Of a DNA stretch of 64,000 bases, positions 43,769 through 64,000 are shown piece by piece. The stretch covers positions 55,560 to 119,559 of the forward strand of contig CAZHOI010000001.1 of NCBI GenBank assembly GCA_964534365.1. The letters are read 5' to 3'. Source of the DNA: an uncultured Candidatus Saccharibacteria bacterium. Its GTDB lineage: Bacteria > Patescibacteriota > Minisyncoccia > Phycocordibacterales > SW-6-46-9. Every line of letters begins with the position of its first letter. The stretch's first letter is position 1. The position numbers and the translations under genes were made by a program. The notes under the pieces were generated by a model. It was not told the origin of the DNA. It did no database searches and saw only the letters and a program-made list of their open reading frames with translations.

Positions 43769-43893
43769 TATTAGTGTTAGGCATTTTAAATCTATACCAC
43801 TACGTTAAACTTCGGGGCACCGTCACTTTGCACACTTCTTGTGCTGCGCGCCGCGAAGCTAAAACAACCCGCAAGGCGAGTTGTTTAGCGAAG

Positions 43894-43914
43894 TGGTGAC
43901 CCTACGGGGAATCG
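43894..43914. repeat. attL-like direct repeat: 21-bp copy of the tRNA-Glu 3' end (TGGTGACCCTACGGGGAATCG)
   Basis: Identical to 56866-56886, which is the 3' end of the intact tRNA-Glu; flanking sequence diverges immediately on both sides. Confidence 0.8.
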
Positions 43915-44236
43915 GTGTCAGCTCACTAATTCGCTAGGCTCATAAGTGGCTCCTACCCGGTCTCGAAAGCTGGGCTTTCTCCGACTTTTGATTATTACCA
44001 CTGGTAATTCACTTAAAACTAAAACAGCTTCAGATAAACTGAAACTGTTGTTAGCTTTTGTGAGCCTATAGCAGGTAGAACTTATTGTTCACCTTGTCAG
44101 GTAAGGCTATTTTAGCACCAAAACATAGATCATATACAACCCTTCAACAGCCCTAGTAAAAAGTGACAAAAGTTACACATATCGCGCTTGTGTCACAAAG
44201 TTACACAGCCCTGTAACAAACGAGTCTTTTTGCCAA

Positions 44237-47200
44237 TTATTTTTTAGCCTTACGAACAGTTCCTTTGACCACTTTCTTGACAGCAGTCTTTTTAGCGACA
44301 GCTTCCTTGGACTTATTTGTTGAGGTAGCTGGAATGTACTTTGTACAGTCAAGAGAAATCGCTGAGACACCATCTATCTTCATGAATGTATACTTAACAG
44401 TATCAAGTGTTTTTAGTTCTTCATTTACAATAATAAGAAAAATCCCGTGGGATGCACCATATCCATCCATGTACCTCTGTAAACTTTTGTATGATTTTGA
44501 TTCTTCAACTTTTCGTCCTCTGATGTCTTTGTTTGAAGTTAATTTTATTTCAACAATAACTGGACCTACAAATCCATATCGAATGATGAGATCCACACGT
44601 TTGTCGTCGAGTAAATCAGGTTCTCTTAAAACTTCAGATTCTATACCTCTTTTGAGAAGCGCATTTTCAATCTGAGTCGTTATTGTTTTTTGTATTAGCT
44701 TTTCGTATTCTTGCTTTTTAGAATCAAGAACTCTACCACCCAGTATCAATTCATAAGCACCTTCTCCTTCAATCCACTTTCGTAAGTCAGAGTCAAAAAC
44801 ATCTTGCAGCTCTCTAGTCAAATCAGCTGATGTTGTTATGCGTGAGTCTACATACTTTCGAGCAGCATTGTATCTCCGTATAGCCTCAGCATATCGAATT
44901 GGTTTTCCTATAGCGTTCAGATAAGCAAGTCGTAGCTTCACAATGTGTCCAGCAAGCCAATTTGCACCTTTCTTCTTTGTACCAATTGCTGCAATTTTTT
45001 CCTCTAAAATCTTTAATGGCTTATAGTCACCAAATTCTTTCAGGTTTTCAAAGTAGGCAAATGTAATCTCCCATAGGTATTGAGCATATGAACGATGGTT
45101 CTCTCCCATGGCCCAAACCTCCAGTGCTCTGTCCAATAATAATAAGTATTCATCTTCGAAACCTTGGTATTTCAAGTCCATAAGTGGCTTTGCAAACTCT
45201 TTACCAAATCGAATTTCATCCTCCATAGGTGTGACAGTATGTGCAAATCTTGACCTTCGTCTCGTCGGGGTAGCTGCCACTCTTGATTTAACTTGATCTA
45301 GCCTCCAATTAACAGCATCACGATTAGCATGTTTAGTGATAAGAAGTGAATTGGCTGCAATAGCAATCTCTCTTTCATCTTCCTGAGTACTCTCTTTGTA
45401 CATTCCAAACACACTCATTAAATAGTTTTCGTCTGAATGTAGGGTTTCTGAAACATTTAGTGCCTTAATTCGGTCTCGTGAGCGAAAGTCGCTTTGATGA
45501 ATAAAGTCTTTTAAAATAGGCAACGCCTTGGTCAGACTGTATTGTTCAACTGAGTCGACAAACGCATCAGGTTGCCATTTCCATAAATCATTATCTCTAG
45601 AAGAATAAATCTCAACTACTGGATCAAGTTCTTCCTCAGTAAAATCAGGAATCAGTTCAAATACCGTTTGTAGCTGTTCGGTGTGAGCAAAAGGTATGAA
45701 CTTAGCGATGTTAGATCTATAAGGGGTGATTTCTATCTTTCTAAGCTGAGCTGATTTTAGAGCATCTCCAAATATTATTGCTGCGCCACTAGCAGTATAG
45801 TTGCGACTTGCACCATCGTCAGTTTCTGAGTTTATGGTGAGGCCGTGTGAAGAAGGATCATGTCGCAAAGCTTCCTGTATTATCAAAGTATCAAATCGAT
45901 ATTTGTCATCGGAACTCATAAGTTTTTCAAGCTTTTCTGCATTTGAGTTGTAATCGTAAAACACTCGATTCATGTACATGTTTTCTGCTGGACAAAGAGA
46001 AGTTTTGAATGCCTCTAAAATCCGATCATCGTTAGCATCATCATGATTTACTTGCTGTTGACTCCTTGCTTCTTCATATTCCTGATATAAGGTTGGCAAT
46101 TTACTTCTACCTGCTTCGTATATCAATTCTGCGTCTTGACCACCCTTTAGTTTAATGCGCGTAAGTGTATGCATTACAACATTTTGCTGTTCGTCAGCAG
46201 CCAACATTGCATCTATAAAGGTTGCAACATCTTCTACTCTCAATAAATCTTCAAAGAAGTCCTGAGCAAAATATAATCCGTGGGCACCTTCCTCATCGCT
46301 GTTGAGCTGATTAATAAGTACAACAAAGAAGTCATCATTTTTATCTCGCAATAACTTCATTATTCCTCTTACAAAAGTCGATTTGCCTCTAGTAGAAGAT
46401 ACGGAGTAGTGGACGGATTTAACAATTGCTTGAAATAACAAATCTTGCATCTCATCGTCAAAACCGTCTTTGATATGATCAACGATTTTCAAGTCTTTAT
46501 CCTTAAAAATTGAAGTATCGTCTAAAAATTCTTTACGGAACTGCTCATCTTCAATATATATTTGCAAGAATTTTTTAATTGCTTGTGGCTCGGTGATTTC
46601 ATATATGCCGTACCGTCCGTGTAAATCATTAGCTCTAATCAGCTTTACAAACGCATTAATACTCCTGTCACTATTAGGATCAAGTGAAGTGCATAGTGAA
46701 ACATACTCGCGCATCACGAGTTCATCAGGAGTGTCTGTGATGTCAGGAAGATCATTAACAATAGTTTTATCACCAAACTCAGCTAGAGCGTACAATGCAT
46801 GTCGAGGCAAAACACCATTCTCATACGCATCTGATGAGTAACTTATTAGTTTTTCCCTCCAGTATTCTTTATCGATTGATACTTTTGATTTCAATAAATA
46901 TGCCAAAATATATGACACGTTTCCTAAGGGTACATAATATTTTGTTGAATCTTTCTGTTCTGTTTCAGCTTTCTCAACAATCTGCTTAAGGAACTTTTCG
47001 AGATCTGAACTAAAGAAAGCAGGTAGTGCCGATGTTAGCTGTCCAGGTATCCACTGAAGCCTATTGTTGTGATAATTTATTACGTCTTTAAACAATCTTT
47101 TTTTAACTTCTAGAGGAGTAAGACTTGGATTAATCCTGCCCAAAAAATTAATAAAAGATTCGTCAACAATTTTGAATGCTGTTCCGCTTATTCCAGAAAA

Positions 47201-48340
47201 GTCGATTAGTTGACCGAGCATCTCAGTGTCCATATCTGTGTAAAAACTAAGAGTATTATACCAAGCCGGATATATCTCTTTCATAACTGGATCAGTGGCG
47301 AATTCAAATATAGCTTTTCGGGGTTCAGCTAAACGAGTTATCTCTTTAGCGGCAAGATATTCTTGAAACTCTACGTTTTCAAACTCAATCTTACCCGTAT
47401 CGTATTTGCTAGTTTGGAGCACTGTGTTCTCTAATAAAATATCTATACCAACTTGAGCAAGTACCATCAGTTTCAGATCGGAACAAATCTCGTCAAAAAA
47501 TGTCACTAGTTCATCACGAGTAATATTATTACTCTGATAAATTTCCATAGTCAGCGCTAGTTTCTCAAGCAATCTTTTTATAACAGGCTCTAAATCACGA
47601 ATTTGTTCATTTCGTCCTGACTCAAGAGATAACTTTGAATAGATAAAGTGTTCAAACAGATCATTACGAGAGAAGTTGGAAATATTTGTAACCCCTTTTG
47701 CTTTAACAAAATCTTCAAATAAAAATAGATAGCGTGGAATTTGGATTATACTCTGGCCATGAAAACGTAACGATCTATTAAGTAAATCTTCGACTTCACC
47801 CTCACTTAGACCGCCTTTTTCAAGGTATTCACTGATTTGACCAGGCGTAAATGGTTTAATTATTATAAATCTGTATGTAGGGAAAGAGCTTGCGTACTTA
47901 TCCATAAACACCCACCGACTTGATATATAGATATTGATTTTTGGATATTTCTCAGATATTTCTTGTATTTTTTTCAGCACGGAATTGAATTCTGAGCGAG
48001 GTACTTCATCTAAAGCATCTAGAAAAAGTGACTTGGTCTTTTTTGATGATTTACCAACAAACTTATCAATTTCATTAATAGCAGTGCGAGAGCTTAAAGG
48101 AATAAAACTTGTTGTATGTCCATCATGCTTAAGATGATTCTCCATCTTTTTAACCAATTCAGTTTTTCCTATACCTGGCTCACCAACCACAACAGTTCTC
48201 CTACCTTGAGCCAAACTACCTATAGGAGTTGGTTTTGCATCATAAAAAACAAAGTGGCCAAACTTATTGTATTGCTCTTTTGCCTCCCTAAAGGAAGATG
48301 AAACTTCAGTGATAGGAATTATGTATCTGTTGTCACTCAT
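44237..48340 (-). CDS. 1367-aa STAND/NACHT-like P-loop NTPase with C-terminal PD-(D/E)xK nuclease-like domain (candidate defence protein)
   Basis: Walker A VVVGEPGIGKTEL (aa ~50-62), Walker B SLFLDALDEV, followed by IYISSRW (the hhhSR element seen in NACHT NTPases). ~900-aa helical middle. C-terminal ...KRVDLIIRYGFVGPVIVEIKL... fits D-x12-E-x-K. Lys-rich tail. Confidence 0.6.
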   Translation of the reverse strand: MSDNRYIIPITEVSSSFREAKEQYNKFGHFVFYDAKPTPIGSLAQGRRTVVVGEPGIGKTELVKKMENHLKHDGHTTSFIPLSSRTAINEIDKFVGKSSKKTKSLFLDALDEVPRSEFNSVLKKIQEISEKYPKINIYISSRWVFMDKYASSFPTYRFIIIKPFTPGQISEYLEKGGLSEGEVEDLLNRSLRFHGQSIIQIPRYLFLFEDFVKAKGVTNISNFSRNDLFEHFIYSKLSLESGRNEQIRDLEPVIKRLLEKLALTMEIYQSNNITRDELVTFFDEICSDLKLMVLAQVGIDILLENTVLQTSKYDTGKIEFENVEFQEYLAAKEITRLAEPRKAIFEFATDPVMKEIYPAWYNTLSFYTDMDTEMLGQLIDFSGISGTAFKIVDESFINFLGRINPSLTPLEVKKRLFKDVINYHNNRLQWIPGQLTSALPAFFSSDLEKFLKQIVEKAETEQKDSTKYYVPLGNVSYILAYLLKSKVSIDKEYWREKLISYSSDAYENGVLPRHALYALAEFGDKTIVNDLPDITDTPDELVMREYVSLCTSLDPNSDRSINAFVKLIRANDLHGRYGIYEITEPQAIKKFLQIYIEDEQFRKEFLDDTSIFKDKDLKIVDHIKDGFDDEMQDLLFQAIVKSVHYSVSSTRGKSTFVRGIMKLLRDKNDDFFVVLINQLNSDEEGAHGLYFAQDFFEDLLRVEDVATFIDAMLAADEQQNVVMHTLTRIKLKGGQDAELIYEAGRSKLPTLYQEYEEARSQQQVNHDDANDDRILEAFKTSLCPAENMYMNRVFYDYNSNAEKLEKLMSSDDKYRFDTLIIQEALRHDPSSHGLTINSETDDGASRNYTASGAAIIFGDALKSAQLRKIEITPYRSNIAKFIPFAHTEQLQTVFELIPDFTEEELDPVVEIYSSRDNDLWKWQPDAFVDSVEQYSLTKALPILKDFIHQSDFRSRDRIKALNVSETLHSDENYLMSVFGMYKESTQEDEREIAIAANSLLITKHANRDAVNWRLDQVKSRVAATPTRRRSRFAHTVTPMEDEIRFGKEFAKPLMDLKYQGFEDEYLLLLDRALEVWAMGENHRSYAQYLWEITFAYFENLKEFGDYKPLKILEEKIAAIGTKKKGANWLAGHIVKLRLAYLNAIGKPIRYAEAIRRYNAARKYVDSRITTSADLTRELQDVFDSDLRKWIEGEGAYELILGGRVLDSKKQEYEKLIQKTITTQIENALLKRGIESEVLREPDLLDDKRVDLIIRYGFVGPVIVEIKLTSNKDIRGRKVEESKSYKSLQRYMDGYGASHGIFLIIVNEELKTLDTVKYTFMKIDGVSAISLDCTKYIPATSTNKSKEAVAKKTAVKKVVKGTVRKAKK

Positions 48341-48349
48341 GTATGCAAG

Positions 48350-48380
48350 TATACTAAAATCCCATGTTTTATACTAAAAT
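48350..48380. promoter_or_regulatory. Divergent promoter/operator region with 11-bp direct repeat TATACTAAAAT x2 (20-bp spacing)
   Basis: The 49-bp gap between the NTPase gene (minus) and the 146-aa gene (plus) contains tatactaaaat at 48350-48360 and 48370-48380. Confidence 0.45.
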
Positions 48381-48389
48381 AAGCTTGTT

Positions 48390-48830
48390 ATGGACATTAA
48401 ACTCTTTGATTTAGAACTCAATCAAGTCAATCCAGCTGATATGGATAAAAATGTTAAGTACGAAGTACTTCGTATCACTGATATAAACCTGCACGGTAAC
48501 CAAAAGCGCCCGACCCAGAACCAAGGCAAGAAAATTGTAAAAGCACTCGAACGATCTGAACCAGTCAGAACCTACCATAAACATAAAAATATTACCCAGG
48601 TAGACGAGAATACCATCACGTCAACACTAGATATGCTGGGTTTTTTGCATAATGATCCGCACTTTGATGCGTATATTAAAAAAGCTCAAGCAGCTGGTAA
48701 AGAAGTGCTGCTCGCATTCCCAGCAGACGGCGTACCCATCTTTCTTGGTAAAGATGCTGCTGAATTTATGGAGGGTACACCTGCTTATAGAAAAACTAGG
48801 TTTGCACAAAAGAAAGACAATGATGTATAA
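48390..48830 (+). CDS. Hypothetical 146-aa protein divergently transcribed from the NTPase-nuclease
   Basis: No recognisable motifs; mixed-charge soluble protein. Position suggests a partner or regulator of the neighbouring gene. Confidence 0.45.
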   Translation: MDIKLFDLELNQVNPADMDKNVKYEVLRITDINLHGNQKRPTQNQGKKIVKALERSEPVRTYHKHKNITQVDENTITSTLDMLGFLHNDPHFDAYIKKAQAAGKEVLLAFPADGVPIFLGKDAAEFMEGTPAYRKTRFAQKKDNDV

Positions 48831-48905
48831 TTGGGGCATCAATCAATAGATTGCTTGTGTACAAAAGCAAGTAGTGTATCGTCTCACGACCATGCCTATT
48901 TCGCA

Positions 48906-48977
48906 CAAGAAATAGTTAACCAATTCGGTTCTGCTATTTCGTGTGTGAGATAGGTATTTTCTATTTCATGCATTTTA
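48906..48977. promoter_or_regulatory. Three CTATTTC boxes (one perfect palindrome CTATTTCGCACAAGAAATAG) upstream of the ParB-methyltransferase operon
   Basis: ctatttcgcacaagaaatag (48906-48925), ctatttcgtgtgtgagatag (48944-48963, imperfect inverted), ctatttc (48971-48977). Confidence 0.45.
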
Positions 48978-48997
48978 TAACTTAAACAAGTTTTAAA

Positions 48998-50281
48998 ATG
49001 ACGAAAAAACTAATATGGCACAACGCCACCAAAACAGTGGATGAACTCATTCCGCAAACTATCAACCCTCGCACCATTACCAACAAACAAATGGACGATC
49101 TCAAGAAGAGTCTAAAGAAATTTGGACTGGCTGAGATACCAGCGATTGATGCCGACGGTACTATACTGGCTGGACATCAGAGAATTAAGGCACTTCAGCT
49201 TCTTGGTCGGGGTAGCGAAGAAATCGACATTCGTGTCCCTAATCGTAAGCTCACCAAAGCTGAAGCAAAGCAGTATCTCATTTCATCAAACAAGCTGGGC
49301 GGTGACTGGGATTTTGAAGCTCTTAAAAGCTTCGATATCGACCTGCTTGCCAACTCTGGCTTCGATGATCTTGAGTTAGCTGAATTTTGGGATAAGGACT
49401 TATCAACTGAAGACGACGAATTTGACGAAGATAAAGAAGTAGATAAAGCCAAGGATACCGATATTGAATCTGGTGATCTTTTGGTACTTGGGAAACATAA
49501 GTTGTTATGCGCAGATTGCACTGATACAAGTGCCGTACAAGCTCTCTTTGGTGATGACCGCACCAGCTTCATCTATTCAGACCCACCGTACAACATCAAC
49601 CTCGACTATGACAAAGGCGTTGGTAACAAAAGCTCGTACGGCGGTAAGGTCGACGACGACAAAAAACCAGAACAATACAAAATGTTTATCAAGCAGACAC
49701 TCGAGGCTGCCTTGTCTGTATCGACCAAAGATACTCATGTGATGTATTGGTGCGATGAAGCGTGGGTTTGGGTATTTCAGACACTGTATAACGAACTTGG
49801 AATTAAAAATCGACGCCTGAACCTATGGTTAAAAAATAATGCCAGCCCGACACCTCAAGTAGCATTTAACAAAGTCGTTGAATTTTGTGTATATGGCACA
49901 CTCGGCAGTCCATATCTATCCAAACAAACCAGAGACGTGACTGAGGTGCAAAACAAAGAACTGGGTACTGGCAATCAGCTACTCGAAGATGTATCTAATG
50001 TCTGGACAGCCAAGCGGCTAAAAGCCAGTGAATACGAACACCCAACTTCTAAGCCGCCGACACTGCATGAAAAAGCAATCAAACGTTGCACAAAATCAAA
50101 TGACATTATTTTCGATTCGTTTGCTGGTTCGGGCAGTACTTTGATTGCCGCTGAAGCACTTAAACGTCGAGTGTATACCATCGAGCAAAGTCCGATATTT
50201 TGTGAAGTTGTTCGTCGGCGATATGAGAAATTAACTGGGAAAAAGGTGCAGCTAATCAAACACTTCTATGAAAAAACCTAG
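48998..50281 (+). CDS. ParB-like nuclease domain fused to beta-class N6-adenine (DPPY) DNA methyltransferase
   Basis: N-terminal ParB/Srx motif ILAGHQRIKAL. MTase motif IV SDPPYNI precedes motif I FDSFAGSGST (beta-class permutation); 427 aa. Confidence 0.8.
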   Translation: MTKKLIWHNATKTVDELIPQTINPRTITNKQMDDLKKSLKKFGLAEIPAIDADGTILAGHQRIKALQLLGRGSEEIDIRVPNRKLTKAEAKQYLISSNKLGGDWDFEALKSFDIDLLANSGFDDLELAEFWDKDLSTEDDEFDEDKEVDKAKDTDIESGDLLVLGKHKLLCADCTDTSAVQALFGDDRTSFIYSDPPYNINLDYDKGVGNKSSYGGKVDDDKKPEQYKMFIKQTLEAALSVSTKDTHVMYWCDEAWVWVFQTLYNELGIKNRRLNLWLKNNASPTPQVAFNKVVEFCVYGTLGSPYLSKQTRDVTEVQNKELGTGNQLLEDVSNVWTAKRLKASEYEHPTSKPPTLHEKAIKRCTKSNDIIFDSFAGSGSTLIAAEALKRRVYTIEQSPIFCEVVRRRYEKLTGKKVQLIKHFYEKT

Positions 50282-50654
50282 ATATTCCAAACAGTTCCTT
50301 GAGGAACTAAAGAAGGTGCCAATTGTGCAAGTGGCGTGCGAGAAGACTGGAGTCTCTAGAAATACTGTCTATCGCTGGAAACGGGACGACAAAGACTTTG
50401 CCGCTGAATTTGATGACGCTTTAGCTGAAGGAGTTAATTACGTCAACGATATGAGTGAAAGTCAGCTATTACAGCTGATCAAAGATCAAAACTTCTCAGC
50501 GGTGCGTTTTTGGCTCAATAAACGCCATCCAGCATACAAGGAGAAGCTTGAAGTAGTGAACAAACATGAGGTTATTGAACTAACAGATAGTCAGAAGAAA
50601 ACTATCAAACAAGCTTTGCAATTAACCAATCCTAAGACAAAAGAACATGACTAA
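50268..50654 (+). CDS. Terminase small-subunit-like HTH protein
   Basis: HTH VACEKTGVSRNTVYRWKRDD near the N-terminus; 128 aa. Overlaps upstream gene by 14 nt and the terminase large subunit by 8 nt (coupled operon). Confidence 0.6.
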   Translation: MKKPRYSKQFLEELKKVPIVQVACEKTGVSRNTVYRWKRDDKDFAAEFDDALAEGVNYVNDMSESQLLQLIKDQNFSAVRFWLNKRHPAYKEKLEVVNKHEVIELTDSQKKTIKQALQLTNPKTKEHD

Positions 50655-52083
50655 CATTCCTAATCATCTCATAGAAAAGATTACTAATGACATCGCCGTT
50701 CGTCGTGAAATCACTAAAGACAGCCATCGGTACTTTATGGCGATTTATCTGCATGAATACATCAAGTATCCAAGTGCTTCATTTCACTCGGAAATGATTG
50801 AATTCACCGAGCGGACAGATGAAAAGCTGTTTGCAGTAGTGTCATTTCGAGGCTCTGCCAAATCAACCATCTTTTCACTGTCGTATCCAATTTGGGCTAT
50901 TCTCGGCAAACAACAGAAAAAGTTTGTGTTGATTATTTCTCGTACCCAAGTGCAAGCTCGACAATTGCTTCACAACATTAAGGTTGAACTAGAACGCAAC
51001 GATCTACTTAAACAAGACCTCGGACCATTTGAAGAACCACAAGATGAATGGCGCGCGGCTTCTATTGTGATACCGAAGTACGATGCTCGTATCATGGTGC
51101 TATCCGCTGATCAAAGTATGCGTGGACTGCGTCATAAGAGTCATCGTCCTGACCTTATTATCTGTGACGATATCGAAGATATCGCTTCAACCAAGACTCA
51201 AGATAATCGAGACAAGACATTCAATTGGTTTACCGGAGAAATCATCCCAGCTGGTGACTTGCATACAAAGATCATCTTGATTGGAAACCTTGTTCATGAC
51301 GACTCACTTATGGTGCGCCTACGTGAAAAAATTGAAAACAATGAAGTGTCAGGAGTGTTTAAAGCTTATCCGCTGATCAACAGTCACGGCGAGTGTTTGT
51401 GGCCAGAGAAATTTCCAGATGAAGCATCACTTGAAGCGTTACGAAAAGAGGTTATGAGCAAACAAGCATGGGAACGTGAGTATTTGCTCAAGATTATTCC
51501 AGACGATGAGCAGATCATAGATCCACTCTGGATTCGTACCTATCACGAGATACCAGCTGATATGAAGCGTCTTGGTGTATTTGTTGGCGTTGATCTAGCA
51601 ATTTCAGAGAAAACTACCGCTGATTATACCGCGATGGTTCCAGTACTAGCTTGTTCACGAAATAGTGAGTTGTATCTGTACGTCTTGCCTGAAATCGTAC
51701 ACGCTCGGATGAGTTTTCCAAAAACGTGTGAGCAGATACAGTATCTTGATCTCAAGCTTAACTCAAAATACAAAATGAATCCGGAGTTTATTATTGAGAA
51801 CGTGGCGTATCAAGATGCAGTGGTGCAGCACTTCGATAAAACATCGATTGATGTTGAGGGTGTGCGTCCGCTTGGTGACAAGCGAGAAAGACTGAACCTT
51901 GCTGCTACAGCTTTGAGTGATAAGCGAGTGTTCTTCCCGCATGAAGCTAGCGATAAACTCATTCAAGAGTTAGTCCACTTTGGCTCAGAAAAGCATGACG
52001 ACCTAGCAGATGCATTTTCGCTAGTGACACTAGAGGTGATGGTTAATAAGAAACCAGAGCGACCGGTAGTGTTTTTTGCGTAG
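50647..52083 (+). CDS. Phage terminase large subunit
   Basis: ATPase Walker A VVSFRGSAKST and Walker B DLIICDDIED, C-terminal RNase-H-like nuclease region (GVDLAISEKTTADYTA ... D residues); 478 aa. Confidence 0.8.
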   Translation: MTNIPNHLIEKITNDIAVRREITKDSHRYFMAIYLHEYIKYPSASFHSEMIEFTERTDEKLFAVVSFRGSAKSTIFSLSYPIWAILGKQQKKFVLIISRTQVQARQLLHNIKVELERNDLLKQDLGPFEEPQDEWRAASIVIPKYDARIMVLSADQSMRGLRHKSHRPDLIICDDIEDIASTKTQDNRDKTFNWFTGEIIPAGDLHTKIILIGNLVHDDSLMVRLREKIENNEVSGVFKAYPLINSHGECLWPEKFPDEASLEALRKEVMSKQAWEREYLLKIIPDDEQIIDPLWIRTYHEIPADMKRLGVFVGVDLAISEKTTADYTAMVPVLACSRNSELYLYVLPEIVHARMSFPKTCEQIQYLDLKLNSKYKMNPEFIIENVAYQDAVVQHFDKTSIDVEGVRPLGDKRERLNLAATALSDKRVFFPHEASDKLIQELVHFGSEKHDDLADAFSLVTLEVMVNKKPERPVVFFA

Positions 52084-52151
52084 CGAGTATGTGACGCTTT
52101 TAATACCCTGCATAGCTATGCAGGGTATTTTGGTCTGTCATTAATATAGAT

Positions 52152-53447
52152 ATGGAAGGAGATATATCTCTATCAGAAGCAAGAGTCAGATACTGTCTAT
52201 ACGCTAGAAAATCGACCGAATCAGACGAACAACAGGCGCTGTCGATAGATTCCCAGATTAAAGAAATGCAGGCCATTGCAGAGCGCTTGAAACTCAATGT
52301 GGTGGATGTGAAGCGTGAGTCACACTCTGCTAAAGAGTCTGGCAAGCGACCAGTCTTTAAAGAGTTGCTCGGAGATATCGCAAACGAAAAATACAACGGT
52401 ATTCTCACCTGGGCACCAGATCGTCTGTCTCGAAACGCTGGTGACCTTGGTACTGTGGTTGACCTCATGGACGCAGGGAAACTGATTCATATTCAAACGT
52501 ATGGACAAACCTTCTCAAACTCACCAAACGAGAAGTTCTTACTGATGATTTTGTGCTCCCAAGCCAAGCTCGAAAACGACAACAAGAGCATTAATGTGAA
52601 GCGTGGTATGCGAGCTAGGGTTGAAATGGGCCTATGGCCCTGCAAGCCACCGACTGGCTATACTAGATTTAAACGCATTGACCAGAAGTGCGAAGCAATC
52701 CTTGATCCTGAACGCGCACCAATGATTAAACAAATGTTTGAGAAGATAGGCTATGATGGCTGGACAGGAAGAAAGCTACACTTATGGCTGAGAGATGAGA
52801 TTGATTTTAGAACTGAAAACGGCAAACATCTTTGCCTCGGCAACCTCTATCGCATAATCCAAAACCACTTTTACTACGGCAGATTTGAGTATCCCAAGAA
52901 TTCTGGCAACTGGTATGACGGTGTCCATGAACCAATCATCACCAAGGAGCTGTTTAATATCGTGCAAGAACAGATCAAAAGCCAAATCCTCGAACCACGT
53001 TCAGCCCAAAAAGAGTTCGCTTTCACTAAAACCATGACCTGCGGTCTCTGTGGCTCAGGCATTACCGCTGATGAGAAGTTTAAAAAGCAAAAGAATGGCA
53101 ATATCCACCGCTACGTTTACTACAAATGTACCCGCACCCGCGATCCTCACTGTGACTGTGGGTTTATCAATGAAAATGACCTGATAACCCAACTACAAGC
53201 CCTCTTGGATGATATAGATATCAAAGTGGTACCGATGCGAGACAAGATCACCAACGAAGTTCGCCGCTACAAGCAATTTCAGCAGATGCTCTTAGGAAAT
53301 GAGACCAAGATTTCGGTCAAAGATATTGATATCCGCAATTACTGTAAGTTTATCTTGCAAGAAGGAGACCTAGAAGAAAAGCGTGATTTTCTTAGATGTT
53401 TGAAGAGTAACGTCTATCTAAACAAAAAAGTAATCAAACTTCAGTAG
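52152..53447 (+). CDS. Large serine recombinase (integrase)
   Basis: Resolvase catalytic domain YARKSTESDEQQALSIDSQ with the nucleophile Ser, recombinase domain, C-terminal zinc ribbon CGLCGSG...YYKCTRTRDPHCDC; 431 aa. Confidence 0.85.
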   Translation: MEGDISLSEARVRYCLYARKSTESDEQQALSIDSQIKEMQAIAERLKLNVVDVKRESHSAKESGKRPVFKELLGDIANEKYNGILTWAPDRLSRNAGDLGTVVDLMDAGKLIHIQTYGQTFSNSPNEKFLLMILCSQAKLENDNKSINVKRGMRARVEMGLWPCKPPTGYTRFKRIDQKCEAILDPERAPMIKQMFEKIGYDGWTGRKLHLWLRDEIDFRTENGKHLCLGNLYRIIQNHFYYGRFEYPKNSGNWYDGVHEPIITKELFNIVQEQIKSQILEPRSAQKEFAFTKTMTCGLCGSGITADEKFKKQKNGNIHRYVYYKCTRTRDPHCDCGFINENDLITQLQALLDDIDIKVVPMRDKITNEVRRYKQFQQMLLGNETKISVKDIDIRNYCKFILQEGDLEEKRDFLRCLKSNVYLNKKVIKLQ

Positions 53448-53482
53448 TTGCGACAAAGAGTAAGTATGATATATTCAACTAT

Positions 53483-53806
53483 ATGGTTGAACAAAGTATT
53501 AATTTAGACACTGTCTTTCAGGCTCTCGCCGACCAAACACGGCGGGATATCTTAAAGCGGGTGTCACAAGCCGAGCTTTCCATAAGCAAGCTCGCTGAAC
53601 CATACAAAATGTCCTTTGCAGCAATTGCTAAACATGTGGGTGTGCTCGAGCGTGCCAATTTGGTTGCTAAACGTCGTGAAGGCAAACAACAAATTATCAG
53701 TGTTGTGCCAAAGACCGTTGCCGTCGCCACGACCCATCTTGAGTTGTATGAAAAGATGTGGAATGAACGCTTCAATGCATTGGAGGTACTCCTTAATGAA
53801 AAATAA
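53483..53806 (+). CDS. ArsR-family transcriptional regulator
   Basis: ALADQTRRDILKRVSQAELSISKLAEPYKMSFAAIAKHVGVLERANLV = ArsR/SmtB winged HTH; 107 aa. Confidence 0.85.
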   Translation: MVEQSINLDTVFQALADQTRRDILKRVSQAELSISKLAEPYKMSFAAIAKHVGVLERANLVAKRREGKQQIISVVPKTVAVATTHLELYEKMWNERFNALEVLLNEK

Positions 53807-54251
53807 TATGAAAACACTTACCTATTCAATTCAAATCAACAAACCACAAGAGTTTGTTTTTAATAAGCTTATAGACAAGTCTGTATATCCAGGCTGGTCC
53901 AAAGCCTGGGGTGAAGGAATGATTTACGATGGTGACTGGAAAGAGGGCGGTCACATTTCCTTTTTTGATAAAGAAAGAGGCGGTACGAAGGTAGTGATAG
54001 AAGAATATAAACCATACCAGTGTATCAAAACCAAGCACATAGCGATGGTCAATCCTCAAAACGAAGAAATATCTCTAACTGACGATATGATGAAGAAATG
54101 GATGGGTACGCGAGAGGATTACTATTTTATAGCCAACGACGATAGAACCACCACATTTGAAGTCATTATGGTTACCGATGAGGCTTTTGAAGAGATGATG
54201 AATGCGTGGTCACAAGCGCTCGTGTATTTCAAAGAAATTTGTGAAGCCTAA
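53796..54251 (+). CDS. SRPBCC (AHSA1/Aha1-like) domain protein
   Basis: Track ORF 53616..54251 overlaps arsR; the in-frame Met at 53796 (MKNNMKTLTYSIQINKPQEFVFNKL...) gives a ~151-aa SRPBCC-sized protein. Confidence 0.6.
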   Translation: MKNNMKTLTYSIQINKPQEFVFNKLIDKSVYPGWSKAWGEGMIYDGDWKEGGHISFFDKERGGTKVVIEEYKPYQCIKTKHIAMVNPQNEEISLTDDMMKKWMGTREDYYFIANDDRTTTFEVIMVTDEAFEEMMNAWSQALVYFKEICEA

Positions 54252-54289
54252 AGTAAAAATTATTAAACCCTAAGTTAAGTACAAAATAT

Positions 54290-54766
54290 ATGGCAACACT
54301 AAAAGTAACTGCTCCAGAACACTCACAAGACATTATTGGTGAGGTCGAAATTAACGCCCCTTTAGAGAAAGTATTTGAAGCCTTTATTAACAAAGATTTA
54401 TTCATTAAATGGTTTTGTCGTGGCAACACTGTCACAGTTAACCAGTTTGAAGGTAAGGACGGTGGCACGTGGGATATTGCTGAGCGAGACCCTGAAGGAA
54501 ATGAATGGGGCTTCTACGGTGTTTTTCACGAAATTGCTCCAAGTGAACGAATCATTTGGACGTTTGAGTTTATGGGTATACAAGAGCGAGGTCATGTCTC
54601 ACTCGAACGTATGGAGTTCACCGACGCCGGTGACGGCACGACTAAAATGAAAAGTATTTCTACCTTCCTCACCAAAGAAGACCGTGATGGCATGGTCGCC
54701 AGTGGTATGGAGGCTGGCTGGCGACAGTCAATTGAAGCCTTAGAAGAGGTGGTAAATGAGAAATAA
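54290..54766 (+). CDS. SRPBCC (AHSA1-like) domain protein
   Basis: INAPLEKVFEAFINKDLFIKWF... typical Aha1/SRPBCC start; 158 aa. Confidence 0.65.
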   Translation: MATLKVTAPEHSQDIIGEVEINAPLEKVFEAFINKDLFIKWFCRGNTVTVNQFEGKDGGTWDIAERDPEGNEWGFYGVFHEIAPSERIIWTFEFMGIQERGHVSLERMEFTDAGDGTTKMKSISTFLTKEDRDGMVASGMEAGWRQSIEALEEVVNEK

Positions 54767-55244
54767 TAAATCTATGAAAAAACTAACTATCGAACGAACC
54801 TTTAATCATCCAATTGAAAAAGTCTGGGCAGCCTGGACAACTCCTGAGCTACTAGCACAGTGGTTCACCCCAACCGGAATGACCAATACGCTTGCTACCG
54901 CTGACGTGGAAGTCGGCGGCCTCTTTCGGTACTGCTTTAAGAGCGTTGAAGATGGGAAAGAGTACTATGGTCGTGGACGTTACCACACCATCACACCGAT
55001 GACGCGCCTCTCATACTACGACTCATTTACTGATGAGACCGGTGCTGACGTGCCAGCTTCACATTATGGAGCGGGTAGCGACCAGATTGAAGAGACGTTG
55101 GTAGATATTAGGTTTGAAGATTTAGGTGAACAAACTAAGATGACGATTGAGATGGAAAATCCATATGCTGACAACCCAGAAATGGCTGCACAAATGATGG
55201 CTGGCTGGAACAGTATGTTTGATAAGCTTGCAAACCTTCAATAA
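54756..55244 (+). CDS. SRPBCC (AHSA1-like) domain protein
   Basis: ERTFNHPIEKVWAAWTTPELLAQWF; 162 aa. Confidence 0.65.
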   Translation: MRNNKSMKKLTIERTFNHPIEKVWAAWTTPELLAQWFTPTGMTNTLATADVEVGGLFRYCFKSVEDGKEYYGRGRYHTITPMTRLSYYDSFTDETGADVPASHYGAGSDQIEETLVDIRFEDLGEQTKMTIEMENPYADNPEMAAQMMAGWNSMFDKLANLQ

Positions 55245-55743
55245 TATGTTTTTGTTCGGGAAAGAAAAAACTCTGCAATTTGAAAGAGAGTTTAATGCTC
55301 CAGTTGAAAAGGTCTGGGATGCCTTTACTATCCCGACAATCCTAACACAGTGGTGGGGACCAGAAGGAACGACGATTCCAGAGTGCGAGATGGATGTAAA
55401 AGTTGGAGGTAAAATTAGAATTGTAATGGAAGCTGGTAAAAGTATGGGTTCGTATGCTGGTACCCGCTGGCCACTTGAGGGTCACTTCACGTTAGTAAAG
55501 CAACATGAACAATTACAATATGAAGCACTCGCTTGGACTGAAGGAAGGAAAGACACTACTACGATAGATCAAATAAATGATGTAACTCTTACAATAAATG
55601 GCGAAAAAACTAATATGGTTTTCATTGTCACTATTAAGAAGACGGGTATTAAAGCCAGTATGGCAGCTTTTGGTATGAAAATGGGGTATGCATCGCAATT
55701 CAAGAAATTAGAGCAATTATTTAATGCAGACAATAATCAATAA
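55219..55743 (+). CDS. SRPBCC (AHSA1-like) domain protein
   Basis: EREFNAPVEKVWDAFTIPTILTQWW; 174 aa (start possibly at internal Met). Confidence 0.65.
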   Translation: MISLQTFNNMFLFGKEKTLQFEREFNAPVEKVWDAFTIPTILTQWWGPEGTTIPECEMDVKVGGKIRIVMEAGKSMGSYAGTRWPLEGHFTLVKQHEQLQYEALAWTEGRKDTTTIDQINDVTLTINGEKTNMVFIVTIKKTGIKASMAAFGMKMGYASQFKKLEQLFNADNNQ

Positions 55744-55746
55744 TAT

Positions 55747-56103
55747 ATGAAAATTACTACAAAAATTATTCAGATACTTCTTGCGCTGTGGTTTATAGCT
55801 GGAGCGATGTATATGATGGGAAATTTCGAGTTCTTAGCCAGTGAAGCCGCCAGTACCTGGTCACAGTTGTTTTGGGTAACGCTTGGTGTGGTTCAAATAT
55901 TACTCGCACTCACTTTACTAATTGGAGCATTTTGGAAGAAAGCGCAGTCGTATGTTCCTGTGGTTGGACTGGGACTGATAATCATTACGCTTGGTGGATT
56001 ATATTGGTACAGTGCGTATAAAGGCTTTTCAGGGTCACTCTGGGCAATAGTTCCAGCCTTACTACTAGGTTGGGTAGTATACTTTTATAAAGCTAAATCA
56101 TAA
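55747..56103 (+). CDS. DoxX-like membrane protein
   Basis: Four hydrophobic helices, 118 aa, typical DoxX size and pattern. Confidence 0.55.
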   Translation: MKITTKIIQILLALWFIAGAMYMMGNFEFLASEAASTWSQLFWVTLGVVQILLALTLLIGAFWKKAQSYVPVVGLGLIIITLGGLYWYSAYKGFSGSLWAIVPALLLGWVVYFYKAKS

Positions 56104-56390
56104 TGACAAAGACAATCACTAAAACCACCGCCTATCACGACGTTCCAAAAACTGTGTTAGCTGTACTGAAGAAAGATATGCAGCTCACTGAGATTTGGAA
56201 CGGTTTGACCGATATCCAACGCAACGAGTGGTGTTGTTACGCTGAGACTGGCAAGAAAGAAGAAACTCGAGCAGAACACCTCCGCCGGTTTGAGAGCGAC
56301 ATGAAAGCCGGTAAAAAGACGCCATGTTGTTGGCCTGGTTGTCCACATCGCAGGCCGAAAGCCGCTAAGTGGTTTGGTACTAAAAAATAA
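56103..56390 (+). CDS. YdeI/OmpD-associated family protein
   Basis: LTDIQRNEWCCYAETGKKEETRAEHLRRFESDMKAGKK resembles the YdeI-family conserved core; 95 aa. Confidence 0.55.
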   Translation: MTKTITKTTAYHDVPKTVLAVLKKDMQLTEIWNGLTDIQRNEWCCYAETGKKEETRAEHLRRFESDMKAGKKTPCCWPGCPHRRPKAAKWFGTKK

Positions 56391-56392
56391 CT

Positions 56393-56758
56393 ATGACAAA
56401 TCACAATGTAAAGACTGTAAATGAGTTTATAAAAGAATCTGCAAAAGATGCACGACCTCACCTCAAAGAGCTTCAAGCGCTAATACAAGCAACAGTGAAG
56501 GGTGTTGAAGAGACAATTAGTTATGGTAAGCCTTACTACAAACTAAACGGTCATTTGGTTGGTTTTGATGCCTATAAGCAACATATTGGTTTTGAAATAT
56601 ATGAAGGTCAACTCGATGAGGAACATAGGTCTAAACTCGAAGAGAAAGGGTATAAAACCGGGAGCAAAGGATTTCAGATAAGTTTTGATCAAAAGGTGCC
56701 AGTTGCTATAGTAAAGAAAGTCGTTAAGCGTCAGGTCTCTGTAAATAAAAACAAATAA
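56393..56758 (+). CDS. DUF1801 (YdhG-like) domain protein
   Basis: VNEFIKESAKDARPHLKELQALIQATVKGVEETISYGKPYYKLNGHLVGFDAYKQHIGF pattern of DUF1801; 121 aa. Confidence 0.6.
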   Translation: MTNHNVKTVNEFIKESAKDARPHLKELQALIQATVKGVEETISYGKPYYKLNGHLVGFDAYKQHIGFEIYEGQLDEEHRSKLEEKGYKTGSKGFQISFDQKVPVAIVKKVVKRQVSVNKNK

Positions 56759-56777
56759 CAACATTTTCACCCAACAC

Positions 56778-56808
56778 AAAAAACAGCCTCAAGTGAGGCT
56801 GTTTTTTG
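56778..56808 (+). terminator. Rho-independent terminator ending the island operon
   Basis: aaaaa-cagcctca-agtg-aggctg-tttttt. Confidence 0.75.
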
Positions 56809-56865
56809 TGTTGTTTGAGCTAGTGTTTTTGAGTCTAATTACGACCCATAAACAGCTAGCTGTCA

Positions 56866-56940
56866 ATGGTGACCCTACGGGGAATCGAACCCCGGTTTTC
56901 GCCGTGAGAGGGCGATGTCCTAGCCGCTAGACGATAGGGC
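56866..56940 (-). tRNA. tRNA-Glu (anticodon CTC), with encoded CCA
   Basis: Reverse complement GGCCCTATCGTCTAGCGGCTAGGACATCGCCCTCTCACGGCGAAAACCGGGGTTCGATTCCCCGTAGGGTCACCA. Anticodon stem TCGCC/GGCGA, loop CT-CTC-AC, T-loop GGTTCGATTCC. Confidence 0.85.
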
Positions 56941-57080
56941 CGTCTTTTATCATAAATAATTTTAGAAAATTATTTATTTTGGGCATAGATTTGCCACCAA
57001 ATCTATTAGCCTTGTGTAGAAATTTTAGTTTACCAAAGTATAAATATCAAATATTAAACACTGAAAGTTTGTGGCAATAC

Positions 57081-57122
57081 CAAATACCAAATACCAAATA
57101 CCAAATACCAAATACCAAATAC
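57081..57122. repeat. Heptanucleotide microsatellite (CAAATAC)6 with degenerate flanking copies
   Basis: caaatac repeated six times exactly, preceded by caatac and followed by caataaa. Intergenic between tRNA-Glu and the ftsI stop. Confidence 0.9.
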
Positions 57123-57136
57123 CAAATACCAATAAA

Positions 57137-60990: not shown

Positions 60991-61125
60991 TCAGGAGATA
61001 CGGCGATTGGTGGGTGGCGGCGGGTTCTCGCTCTCGCAGCTCTCGTCCCGGCGGGCAAAGCCCATCACAAGCATGAGAAGCAGAAAAAGAACAATTACCA
61101 ACACGAGGAGGATTTCGGGGATCAT
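60991..61125 (-). CDS. 44-aa single-TM peptide (GC-rich block)
   Basis: MIPEILLVLVIVLFLLLMLVMGFARRDESCESENPPPPTNRRIS; below the ORF-track size cutoff. Confidence 0.3.
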   Translation of the reverse strand: MIPEILLVLVIVLFLLLMLVMGFARRDESCESENPPPPTNRRIS

Positions 61126-61185
61126 CGCGGTTGGGGTCTAGTGTAGTTTTAATCTAGCATACTTCTAAAGGATTTATTTTTGTTG

Positions 61186-61230
61186 AAAAAGAAAAACCCG
61201 CCGGTTGCTGGAGTGGCAACACGACGGGTA
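61186..61230 (-). terminator. Rho-independent terminator (minus strand) after the 41-aa peptide gene
   Basis: Minus-strand acccgtcg-tgttgccactccagcaac-cggcgggt followed by tttttc. Confidence 0.5.
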
Positions 61231-61248
61231 GGTGGTAGGAAGGAAGAA

Positions 61249-61374
61249 TCATTCGTACATTCTTCCGGTCGGATCCAACTCATCCAATGCTCTATTGGTG
61301 TGGTGGATCACTATACTCCACATGGTTAGGAACGCTCCCACGGCAAGGGTGCCAATAACAGTGGCTAATTTCAT
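61249..61374 (-). CDS. 41-aa single-TM peptide (GC-rich block)
   Basis: MKLATVIGTLAVGAFLTMWSIVIHHTNRALDELDPTGRMYE. Confidence 0.3.
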   Translation of the reverse strand: MKLATVIGTLAVGAFLTMWSIVIHHTNRALDELDPTGRMYE

Positions 61375-61530
61375 AGCGAGGGTCAGGTTGTGAAGCTTAA
61401 TTATGCCATAAATTGTATAGTATGTAAAAAAAACCCCGGCGGCGCTGTGCGTCGTCGGGGACCGTGGCAGTTCGTAAACTCCAAGGTATTACGTGATTTT
61501 ACGCTCACGTTAAGCGTTTTCAGTTGCGGA

Positions 61531-62619
61531 CTACTGTCTCCAAGGAAAGAACGTCGCTCCCACCTGCACATACGGTCCACCAGTGGGGGCGGCGTAGTAC
61601 AGCGAAGTGACGTGGCGGTACCCCGCCCCAATTGTGAAGTCCACGTCAGGCAGGGTTTCTACACCAACTTGCCCTCCGAGAGAGAAACTCACGTGGGTAC
61701 GACCGATGCCGTCACGAACGGACTCGGTACGGGTTCCGCCGATGCCGACGCTCGGTCCAGCGCTAATCTCGGAGTTGGCGAAGTGGTCGAGCAAATCGTA
61801 GGTGAGATTCACCTCAACGCTCAACAACTCCTCTGCGAACTCTGTGTTGCACTGTCCCGCAGAGGCGGGGTATGCACCCAGCTCGCCGCCGCAGGTTTCG
61901 GCGTAACCGATACCTACGGCATCGTATGCCAGGGACTTGAGCCCGCCATATCCGAACTGGACACCGCCGCCGAAGTTGTTGTACCACGGGGCAACCTCTT
62001 TCGCCTCTTGCGGCTTGGGAGCCGGCGGAGGCGGGGTCGGACGCGGCTGGCGACGCTCGGCGACAAGCGCCGGGCGAACCATCACAAGGTCGCAGTCTTC
62101 TCTCGCACAGGTCTGGGGGATCAAATCCACCCGACGTTGCCTAGCGTGCTCGAATTGAAACCCTTCGCGGTCCTTGGCGATTTTAGCGTCCTCAGGCTCG
62201 AGGAAGCCGGTGACCGGCTCGTCGACGTTTACGTCGACGTTGCAGTTACGCACGCCGAGCTTGTACAGCTCGTTGCGCACGAACTCGGCGCGGTCGCGGG
62301 CCAGCTGCTGAGCGTTTACGCTACGCAGCTCAACCTCCGACAGGCGGGGCGAGATGATGTAGCTGGTCTGGGGGCAAGCCCGCAAGATCTCAGCCACATC
62401 CTCAAGAACGTATGGGTTCTCTGCTGTGGAGTTTCCTTCGCTGAAGAAAAGCTCCTCCAGCTCGATGATCTGCCGGCATTGTGCCGAAGTCATCACAACG
62501 TTCTCGATCACGTCAGCCTGAGGCTGGCGCGGGACTATCTGGTCCGTCTGCGCCGTCGCAGGAACGGCGGTCAGGAGGACGGCGCAGAGCGCCAGGAAAA
62601 ACAGGTTGAGGTGGTTCAT
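61531..62619 (-). CDS. Secreted OmpA-like domain protein with Gly-rich C-terminal beta-rich region
   Basis: Signal peptide MNHLNLFFLALCAVLLTAVPATAQT. OmpA-family peptidoglycan-binding motif NAQQLARDRAEFVRNELYKLGV (N..LS..RA..V...L...G). Pro-rich linker, then a G/alternating-hydrophobic C-terminus ending in F-P-W. The antisense 419-aa ORF is Arg-rich nonsense. Confidence 0.5.
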   Translation of the reverse strand: MNHLNLFFLALCAVLLTAVPATAQTDQIVPRQPQADVIENVVMTSAQCRQIIELEELFFSEGNSTAENPYVLEDVAEILRACPQTSYIISPRLSEVELRSVNAQQLARDRAEFVRNELYKLGVRNCNVDVNVDEPVTGFLEPEDAKIAKDREGFQFEHARQRRVDLIPQTCAREDCDLVMVRPALVAERRQPRPTPPPPAPKPQEAKEVAPWYNNFGGGVQFGYGGLKSLAYDAVGIGYAETCGGELGAYPASAGQCNTEFAEELLSVEVNLTYDLLDHFANSEISAGPSVGIGGTRTESVRDGIGRTHVSFSLGGQVGVETLPDVDFTIGAGYRHVTSLYYAAPTGGPYVQVGATFFPWRQ

Positions 62620-62991
62620 GAGGGGGCGCCGCGGGGGCGCGGGGTATGAGTGATGACGAGGTTAGGCCAGTCACAAGTGACGAGCCGACCCTGGTTCACT
62701 GACCTCTAGCACTAGTCTATTTCTAGACAGCAACTGAAAAGTCAAAGAACTGGGGTCGAGTTGCATTATTGCAACCGACTCTATCCATAATAATACATTA
62801 GAATCTGTATTTTGTCAAATAGCTTTACCTCTTTTATTACCACTATTACTACGTTAATGAAGTATGAGAAAAGCCTGCTGGAACGTGTATCGAAAACCAG
62901 GCAGGCTAGAATCCGCAGTGTTCACCGCGAATCAGAAGGAACATTATTTTCGACTTTAGTTTCCCTCTTCTCTGGGCGCCTTACAGGACGC

Positions 62992-63462
62992 CTAATCGGT
63001 GATGATCTGGATTCCCCAGACCTTATCACCTATCTTAATCCGGCCGATCTCCTCACCAGGCTGTGCCCGGTGAGTGCGAGTAGCGGTCCAGTAGTAGAGC
63101 TGGTCATCCTTGGAGGTTGACCAGTTACCGATCCCATAGAGAGTTACCTCTCCGGTGAGGCCGGTAATCTTCTGGACGGCATCGCGGCTGAGCTCCACGT
63201 ACTGAGGGTCGCCCAGCGGTTGGGCCACTTTGATGTTGCCCTCAGTCACTGCCGGAGGGCCGTCAGGCGGAGGCGTATCAGTCGAGTCGGTCGGAGCCGG
63301 CTCGTCGTCACAGCACTGCTGCATGTCCGGCCCAGCGATGGTGTCGCTGCAGCCGGTCAGAAGGCCGCCGAGGGCGAGCATCCACCAGAAAGCGCCGAAA
63401 GCGATCACCCGGTAGATGGTGCGGCTTCCGAAGAGGCCTTTTTTGTCGATGACGTGTGCCAT
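62992..63462 (-). CDS. Predicted lipoprotein (GC-rich block)
   Basis: Signal peptide with lipobox LLTGC, Pro/Asp-rich linker; 156 aa. Confidence 0.45.
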   Translation of the reverse strand: MAHVIDKKGLFGSRTIYRVIAFGAFWWMLALGGLLTGCSDTIAGPDMQQCCDDEPAPTDSTDTPPPDGPPAVTEGNIKVAQPLGDPQYVELSRDAVQKITGLTGEVTLYGIGNWSTSKDDQLYYWTATRTHRAQPGEEIGRIKIGDKVWGIQIITD

Positions 63463-63723
63463 GATCGTATATGCCGGCTTTGTCTGAAGAGACTATCCGG
63501 CAGCGTATGAGAAAAGAGAGACTTGTCGAGGTGCGTTTGCACTTGATGGGCCACTATGGATGGCGGGCTGTAGACAGCGGTTTAACGGCTATCTAGAGCG
63601 TGCCACCAGTGGTCACCTCTAACTACTAATATACCAGATTTAGAATATTTGTCAAGTTATTTAGTATTAAAAAACCACCATTGCTGGCAGCTTTTTAAAG
63701 GTTCTTTTATTAAATAACCTTGT

Positions 63724-63999: not shown

Positions 64000-64000
64000 A

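Follow-up and report, generated by a model that had tools for sequence, protein, structure and literature searches.

A NACHT NTPase with a C-terminal restriction-endonuclease-like domain at the edge of a tRNA-Glu island in an uncultured Saccharibacteria genome: a candidate anti-phage protein

Here, we analyse a 64,000-nt stretch of contig CAZHOI010000001.1 from an uncultured Candidatus Saccharibacteria bacterium, referred to as the window, and in it one minus-strand open reading frame (ORF; 44237..48340, start codon ATG) that encodes a protein of 1,367 aa. The protein joins an N-terminal NACHT-type NTPase module to a long HEAT-like helical solenoid and a C-terminal domain of the PD-(D/E)xK nuclease type, and its gene lies at the left edge of a 13.0-kb island in a tRNA-Glu gene. 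Most probably it works as a single-protein anti-phage sensor-effector resembling the NOD-like receptors (NLRs). We infer this function from the domain architecture, the conserved residues and the genomic contexts, which together support the abortive-infection-type defence reading of an earlier first-pass annotation.

The ORF belongs to a conserved protein family and is not a chance ORF. When 5.8 billion proteins were searched with a word-seeded method, 270 relatives emerged. Over 120 of these are full-length homologues of 1,320-1,390 aa with 37-64% identity, and it is these homologues together with the invariant residues that establish a real gene. G53, K59, D108, D111, E112 and R142 as well as the block F320-x-N322-x-EFQEYLAAKE333 are invariant in alignments of 45 and of 117 sequences, and so is G58 in the 117 sequences. 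E1213, D1250, E1264 and K1266 are invariant among the 45 sequences and at least 90% conserved among the 117. All four motifs quoted in the first-pass annotation are present at the checked coordinates: the Walker A GEPGIGKT (aa 53-60, 48161-48184), the Walker B LFLDALDEV (aa 105-113, 48002-48028), the sensor-1 element IYISSRW (aa 137-143, 47912-47932) and the nuclease motif RVDLIIRYGFVGPVIVEIKL (aa 1248-1267, 44540-44599). The spacing in the latter, given there as D-x12-E-x-K, had to be corrected to D1250-x13-E1264-x-K1266.

Homologues are scattered over Patescibacteria, Nitrospirae, Gammaproteobacteria, Bacteroidota, Campylobacterota and one metagenome-assembled genome (MAG) labelled Nitrosopumilus, a patchy distribution which fits horizontal transfer. 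No match was obtained with tblastn against 50,697 phage genomes. Most family members carry a precomputed match to PF28130 (DUF8371) of the newest Pfam release, which is only 'faint' in the protein studied here; this domain has no assigned function and thus adds no functional information.

Distant full-length relatives (23-25% identity) occur in two cultured strains, on the genome of Chitinophaga arvensicola DSM 3695 (locus L012, 9914-13840) and on a plasmid of Arcobacter sp. DSM 115972 (CP129951.1, 92472-96518; locus L024, 8917-12963). Both would be far easier to approach experimentally than the Patescibacteria protein. A further homologue from Patescibacteria (P0030, 1,451 aa; locus L019, 8001-12356) has approximately 110 extra residues after the nuclease domain. 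They hold DFDGT, a motif that is characteristic of HAD-type phosphatases, and stem either from a fusion or from a gene call that reads through.

The structure was predicted with AlphaFold2 (AF2) in two pieces, aa 1-1200 and aa 1140-1367. For the first piece, the model built on the 117-sequence alignment reached a predicted local distance difference test (pLDDT) score of 87.1 and a predicted template modelling (pTM) score of 0.76. Its P-loop core has five strands (48-52, 76-81, 103-108, 136-141 and 157-161), with R142 coming after the strand 136-141. A helical domain (166-268) and a winged helix (272-334) come next, and these two are better conserved than any other part of the protein (column identity 0.70-0.78). 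In a Foldseek search against the Protein Data Bank (PDB), the top 18 matches comprise NLRC4, NLRP2/3/7/9, NOD2 and two cytoplasmic-lattice chains (9xrl), with E-values from 2e-7 to 3e-6 and a probability of 1.00. Koonin and Aravind reportedly described the NACHT-type Walker B in 2000 as hhhhD[GAS]hDE, i.e. with a second acidic pair. The protein carries a Walker A of the form GxxGxGK[ST], a Walker B of this type (D-A-L-D-E) and the sensor-1 arginine (SSR). Judged by the NLR ranking in Foldseek and by the NACHT-type Walker B and sensor-1, the NTPase thus belongs to the NACHT clade of the signal transduction ATPases with numerous domains (STAND). This is in good agreement with the first-pass annotation, which had recognised the N-terminal P-loop NTPase with its Walker A and B motifs and an element in the position of the NACHT hhhSR; the motifs proved invariant and the modelled fold NLR-like. 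Pfam profiles match at aa 44-148 weakly, as sub-threshold or marginal P-loop hits only (AAA_7, NPHP3_N, KAP, NACHT). With 21.5 bits, NACHT (PF05729) stays under its gathering threshold of 26.7, and about one third of the listed homologues have a precomputed PF05729 match.

Beyond the winged helix, the model continues up to residue 1200 as an all-alpha solenoid that is unbroken save for a single beta-hairpin, and the helical region of approximately 900 aa proposed from the letters is thereby confirmed. The proteins ranked by Foldseek after the NLRs are HEAT-repeat proteins (SF3B1, karyopherins and CAND1), and Pfam HEAT_2 matches weakly at aa 508-570. We presume this solenoid of ~870 residues to be the sensor.

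For the C-terminal piece, modelled on 33 sequences, pLDDT is 79.7 for the whole piece and 86-97 within the core. The modelled elements follow the order helix, three strands, helix, strand, helix, strand, and thus include the alpha-beta-beta-beta-alpha-beta core of the PD-(D/E)xK superfamily. E1213 is placed on helix 1, D1250 where strand 2 begins, and E1264-I-K1266 in strand 3, which is the canonical arrangement. Fold and conserved residues hence bear out the restriction-endonuclease-like C-terminus that had been suggested. At the sequence level, phmmer and profile hmmsearch of the PDB sequences with the C-terminus gave no match, and Pfam matched with PDDEXK_3 alone, marginally and in 3 of 33 family members (best E-value 0.053). 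The nuclease domain of Avs4 is among the weak Foldseek matches. An exhaustive profile search of 1.84 billion cluster representatives found the domain in only 347 proteins, always at the C-terminus; the full-length ones measure 1,300-1,400 aa, and truncation of the gene call is the most likely reason for the shorter ones. This makes it a family-specific domain. It is followed by a disordered tail whose composition, not its sequence, is conserved: lysine and arginine make up on average 36% of the last 30 aa, compared to 13% of whole proteins, and at least 30% in 38 of 45 homologues. Such a composition is consistent with non-specific binding of DNA, which probably is the role of the tail.

Homologues do occur in defence-island or mobile surroundings. 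Ten of 13 independent contexts are mobile or defence-rich in a qualitative count, made with no background rate, whose markers were integrases, transposases, restriction-modification, TIR, SIR2, OLD, Cas1 or dGTPase genes, or a location on a plasmid or viral contig. A homologue labelled Dormibacteraeota (L021) is accompanied by IS110, Mrr, a TIR protein and Cas1, one from Saccharibacteria (L007) by a serine recombinase, and the distant relative in C. arvensicola by a serine recombinase, an AAA_13 ATPase and a tyrosine integrase. Further neighbours are a SIR2 protein of 1,304 aa (L014), a PLD-SNF2 helicase with an Eco57I-type methylase (L015), a methylase and a primase on an IMG/VR contig (L022), and a dGTPase, a DUF3800 protein and a large AAA ATPase on the Arcobacter plasmid, which has 133 kb.

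For the ligand, oligomerisation, nuclease activity, substrate and defence phenotype of the protein, we infer the following course by analogy with Avs and bNACHT proteins. The NACHT module would keep the resting protein in a closed, monomeric state until a phage-derived protein, or some other cue of infection, is bound by the solenoid. Nucleotide exchange would then open the module, and oligomerisation would follow. The clustered C-terminal domains may thereby turn into active DNases, presumably helped by the basic tails, and would destroy phage DNA and probably host DNA too, i.e. act by abortive infection. Avs proteins, which are activated by binding conserved phage proteins and by oligomerisation (PMC13601566, PMC13581612), provide the mechanistic template.

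Several observations weigh against a defence function. The histidine of the winged-helix motif FxHxxxQE(F/Y)hAA is absent, and its place is taken by the invariant asparagine N322, which was equated with the NLR position by motif pattern only. The presumed sensor is not hypervariable; its column identity of 0.50-0.60 is a weaker sign than the arms-race signature of some sensors. Three of the 13 contexts (L005/L006, L019 and L010) are without mobile or defence genes, and the enrichment in the other ten is, as said, qualitative. PADLOC-DB v2 yielded no defence match, and no Avs model at E<=1. Finally, against the June 2026 NCBIfam equivalog models for 'NACHT domain-containing antiphage protein', the whole protein scores 55.6 bits against a cutoff of 1200 for HyoA (NF058534, 1,430 positions) and 35.3 against 1000 for EruA (NF058535, 1,318 positions), i.e. 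approximately 20-fold below.

The location of the gene could also mean that the protein serves the mobile element that carries it. An exact 21-nt direct repeat (TGGTGACCCTACGGGGAATCG; 43894-43914 and 56867-56887) comprises the 3' end of the tRNA-Glu gene and delimits the island; by our estimate, about 2e-5 such repeats are expected by chance in 14.7 kb. The first-pass annotation had described the gene as cargo of a tRNA-integrated element close to terminase genes, and both statements hold, since the repeat is exact and PHROGs profiles identify the small and large terminase subunits (TerS and TerL). With packaging genes and an integrase and without portal, capsid or tail genes, the island (43894-56887) may represent either an element resembling phage satellites or a Patescibacteria prophage that has decayed. 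Matches of its backbone to PHROGs include phrog_498 (1e-79), phrog_38 (3e-76) and phrog_95 (8e-60). G+C content is 0.367 in the NTPase gene, 0.403 in the island and 0.39-0.41 in the flanks.

Three related loci allow the relation between the NTPase and this backbone to be judged. On a 514-kb MAG contig (L020, 1854-12098), an NTPase with 45% identity is likewise divergent from an operon, which holds an unknown ORF, the ParB-methylase (53%), TerS (52%) and TerL (46%). At L018, a single 226-aa ORF separates an NTPase with 55% identity from a serine integrase with 54% identity, and further genes encode a C5-methylase, MutH, an OLD-TOPRIM ATPase, a UvrD helicase and a transposase. An IMG/VR contig (L023, 1-16598) carries the backbone with its gene order preserved (methylase 68%, TerS 55%, TerL 71%, integrase 62%) but lacks the NTPase; an IrrE/M78 peptidase and unknown ORFs lie on that side, and two more methylases with unknown partners beyond the integrase. 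Clusters at 90% identity hold 93 sequences for the TerL of the window versus one for the NTPase. The NTPase is variable cargo of a conserved backbone, which recurs with it at L020 and L018 and without it at L023.

A protein working for its element, as a weapon or checkpoint, might sense a helper or competing phage and cleave its DNA, which would shift packaging in favour of the element. It might also be an addiction module and kill those cells from which the element is lost. Its place at the edge of an island with packaging but no structural genes would suit such a role, as would the similar divergence of NTPase, methylase, TerS and TerL at L020 (45-53% identity) and of NTPase and integrase at L018 (54-55%); moreover, terminase is known to trigger both STAND and Upx sensors (PMC13601566). 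However, the backbone occurs without the NTPase at L023, and most contexts have the NTPase but no backbone (L005, L019, L021, L012, L014, L015 and L024). The association is thus cargo-like and not obligate, and we hold a service to the element to be unlikely. It also overlaps with defence and is hard to separate from it, as element-borne defence cargo protects the host too.

A bolder version of the defence proposal would unite both aspects: a distinct, Patescibacteria-centred NACHT lineage which detects terminase or another phage packaging protein through its HEAT-like sensor, and which travels as exchangeable cargo of a capsid-less TerS/TerL/serine-integrase element. We regard this as speculative and give it little credence. 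If true, it would be the first pairing of a defence gene with a satellite-like element described for bacteria of the candidate phyla radiation (CPR), and the element's own terminase would need to have evolved so as to escape or tune the sensor.

Alternatively, the C-terminal domain might bind DNA or sense DNA ends instead of killing, which would make the protein a DNA-triggered switch in repair, recombination or regulation. With the catalytic set E...D...ExK invariant or nearly so in 117 sequences, which argues for catalysis, with the domain confined to the C-terminus of this one family (347 representatives), and with neighbourhoods that are defence-rich or mobile and not repair operons, such a role is very unlikely. 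Least probable of all is a non-immune STAND NTPase, a MalT/AfsR-like regulator or scaffold that sits on the island by chance: a 2026 survey counts 391 of 589 STAND clades as non-defence (PMC13581612) and the best Pfam matches, including NPHP3_N and KAP, are not defence-specific, but the protein has no DNA-binding helix-turn-helix output domain and a nuclease with intact active-site residues as its only enzymatic output, its nearest curated families are antiphage, its contexts are mobile or defence-rich, and no conserved regulon or operon partner was found.

As an anti-phage sensor-effector, this NLR-like sensor-nuclease, modelled with confidence and carried by a mobile island, would be a concrete candidate for phage resistance in Patescibacteria. 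These CPR bacteria are ultra-small, mostly uncultured episymbionts whose defence systems have, to our knowledge, received little study. The family is well defined and compact, with a nuclease domain of its own and about 350 clusters at 50% identity. It joins those STAND proteins that have the effector after the sensor, a set useful for testing whether activation geometry depends on the position of the effector. The carrier element, capsid-less and with cargo that differs by genome, may lead to phage satellites of CPR bacteria.

The features of the gene and of the island are collected in Table 1.

Table 1. Features of the NTPase gene and its island in the window. Positions count from the first nucleotide of the window.
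Feature	Position	Strand	Basis
Left attachment (att) repeat, 21 nt identical to tRNA-Glu 3' end	43894..43914	.	exact direct repeat
Terminator-like hairpin, 11 pairs and T-run, ~190 nt 3' of stop codon	44023..44049	-	consensus scan; such sites at chance level in the region, weak evidence
Whole gene, NACHT-HEAT-nuclease protein, stop codon included	44237..48340	-	ORF list and translation, >120 full-length homologues
Lys/Arg-rich disordered tail, aa 1336-1367	44240..44335	-	composition, pLDDT about 50
PD-(D/E)xK (restriction-endonuclease-like) domain, aa 1206-1335	44336..44725	-	
Catalytic candidates	E1213 44702-44704; D1250 44591-44593; E1264 44549-44551; K1266 44543-44545	-	
All-alpha HEAT-like solenoid, aa 337-1205, presumed sensor; beta-hairpin aa 834-850	44726..47332	-	AF2 pLDDT mostly 85-96, Foldseek, weak Pfam
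Helical domain 1 and winged-helix domain, aa 166-336; invariant block at 47342-47383	47333..47845	-	conservation, secondary structure, Foldseek
NACHT nucleotide-binding domain, aa 46-165	47846..48205	-	invariant residues, modelled P-loop core, weak Pfam, HyoA/EruA matches
N-terminal extension, aa 1-45; conserved Y6, P9; one short strand and one helix	48206..48340	-	alignment A1, AF2 model
Divergent 146-aa ORF	48390..48830	+	no match in Pfam, PADLOC, PHROGs, NCBIfam
Island backbone (methylase, TerS, TerL, serine integrase) as a whole	48998..53447	+	Pfam; PHROGs; recurs in L020, L018, L023
ParB-N6/N4 DNA methylase	48998-50281	+	Pfam / PHROGs
TerS	50268-50654	+	PHROGs
TerL	50647-52083	+	PHROGs
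Large serine integrase	52152-53447	+	Pfam / PHROGs
tRNA-Glu(CTC); its 3' 21 nt (56867-56887, CCA included) = right att repeat	56867..56941	-	ARAGORN, Rfam

The small divergent gene mentioned in the first-pass annotation exists as the 146-aa ORF. It was considered as a partner, i.e. an antitoxin or regulator, and rejected: no homologue lies beside any NTPase homologue or in the backbones of L020 and L023, and this, together with the missing family match, speaks against a conserved partner. Rightward, the ORF is followed by the methylase, TerS, TerL, the integrase, an ArsR protein, three AHSA1 paralogues, a DoxX-like protein, DUF1801, tRNA-Glu(CTC) and PBP2. The genes 3' of the integrase (53483-56758) form an accessory block unrelated to the packaging genes, which consists of the ArsR-type regulator, the three AHSA1/SRPBCC paralogues in tandem (54290-55743), the weak DoxX-like ORF and DUF1801. 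The left flank is of housekeeping character (S41 peptidase, CorA, CysS, DnaB, RecR, L21 and a DKNYY protein). The host is of the Paceibacteria/Parcubacteria type within Patescibacteria, judged by the labels of all named DnaB relatives with 58-64% identity except two that are designated 'bacterium' only.

A scan for promoters did not exceed chance level. Over the left att site, a GC-rich non-coding stretch (43790-43990) folds on the minus strand more stably than shuffled sequences (-69.4 kcal/mol, z = -2.9), and Rfam assigns no family to it (best E-value 0.098). Between tRNA-Glu and the PBP2 gene, the heptamer AATACCA is repeated perfectly in eight tandem copies (57076-57131). At the right end of the window, G+C content rises to 0.54-0.55 (61000-64000; 0.41 in the window), and two long ORFs overlap at 61390-62649 (+) and 61531-62619 (-). 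Rfam found no rRNA in 61000-64000, which may be foreign or otherwise unusual DNA.

Among known systems, HyoA and EruA are the nearest curated families and are of similar overall size. When the protein was scanned in fragments, the collinear matches to HyoA covered the NACHT region (aa 43-146 to profile positions 36-152, E-value 9e-11) and the nuclease core (aa 1211-1310 to 1287-1383, 2e-5), and the same split pattern is found in the distant relatives L010 and L024 (Bacteroidia and Arcobacter). HyoA, a named antiphage protein, therefore very probably has a NACHT-first, nuclease-last layout as well, as far as its architecture can be read from profile coordinates alone, which applies to EruA likewise. 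EruA is matched in the N-terminal region only (aa 42-216 to 20-189, 3e-8). In contrast, the middle part of approximately 740 residues resembles neither family, and the scores so far below the equivalog cutoffs argue that the protein is not an orthologue of either. The first-pass annotation had recognised no named system; this agrees with the outcome for PADLOC-DB v2, but has to be qualified by the collinear HyoA matches, remote as they are.

It had also called the order of effector and sensor inverted. The order is real and in the minority, but it is not new, as C-terminal effectors of bacterial NACHT proteins have been described. Some bNACHT proteins carry the effector at the extreme C-terminus, after the repeats, and it was suggested that the repeat superstructure brings it back to the usual spatial position (Kibby et al., bioRxiv 10.1101/2022.07.19.500537). 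The family shares with bNACHT proteins the NACHT module, the NACHT-type Walker B, the winged-helix QE(F/Y)LAA block and the single-gene format; bNACHT effectors include nucleases of the restriction-endonuclease fold (bNACHT25), and their sensors include HEAT repeats. The tested bNACHT proteins, however, bear an N-terminal effector, such as the Mrr-like restriction endonuclease of bNACHT25, where this family has just an extension of 45 aa, and their winged-helix histidine is an asparagine here.

Avs2, Avs3 and Avs4 are likewise large single-polypeptide STAND NTPases, in which a nuclease effector is combined with a large sensor of alpha-helical repeats. They are ordered effector-STAND-sensor, whereas the order here is STAND-sensor-effector, and the NTPase studied here is of the NACHT clade by motif and fold. 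With Upx (PDB 9wuf), only the C-terminal PD-(D/E)xK fold and the single-gene format are shared; Upx lacks an NTPase module and has a second, N-terminal nuclease (PMC13099982), and no sequence similarity to it was detected.

The family fits the STAND landscape of the 2026 survey, where 198 clades are defence-associated, mostly with alpha-helical repeat sensors (PMC13581612). The novelty claimed in the first-pass annotation was overstated. It is moderate, that of an uncharacterised family within the known NACHT/Avs-like single-gene defence proteins, whose domain order has precedent and which has a remote named relative. The chief interest lies in the Patescibacteria host and in the capsid-less TerS/TerL/integrase carrier with its exchangeable cargo.

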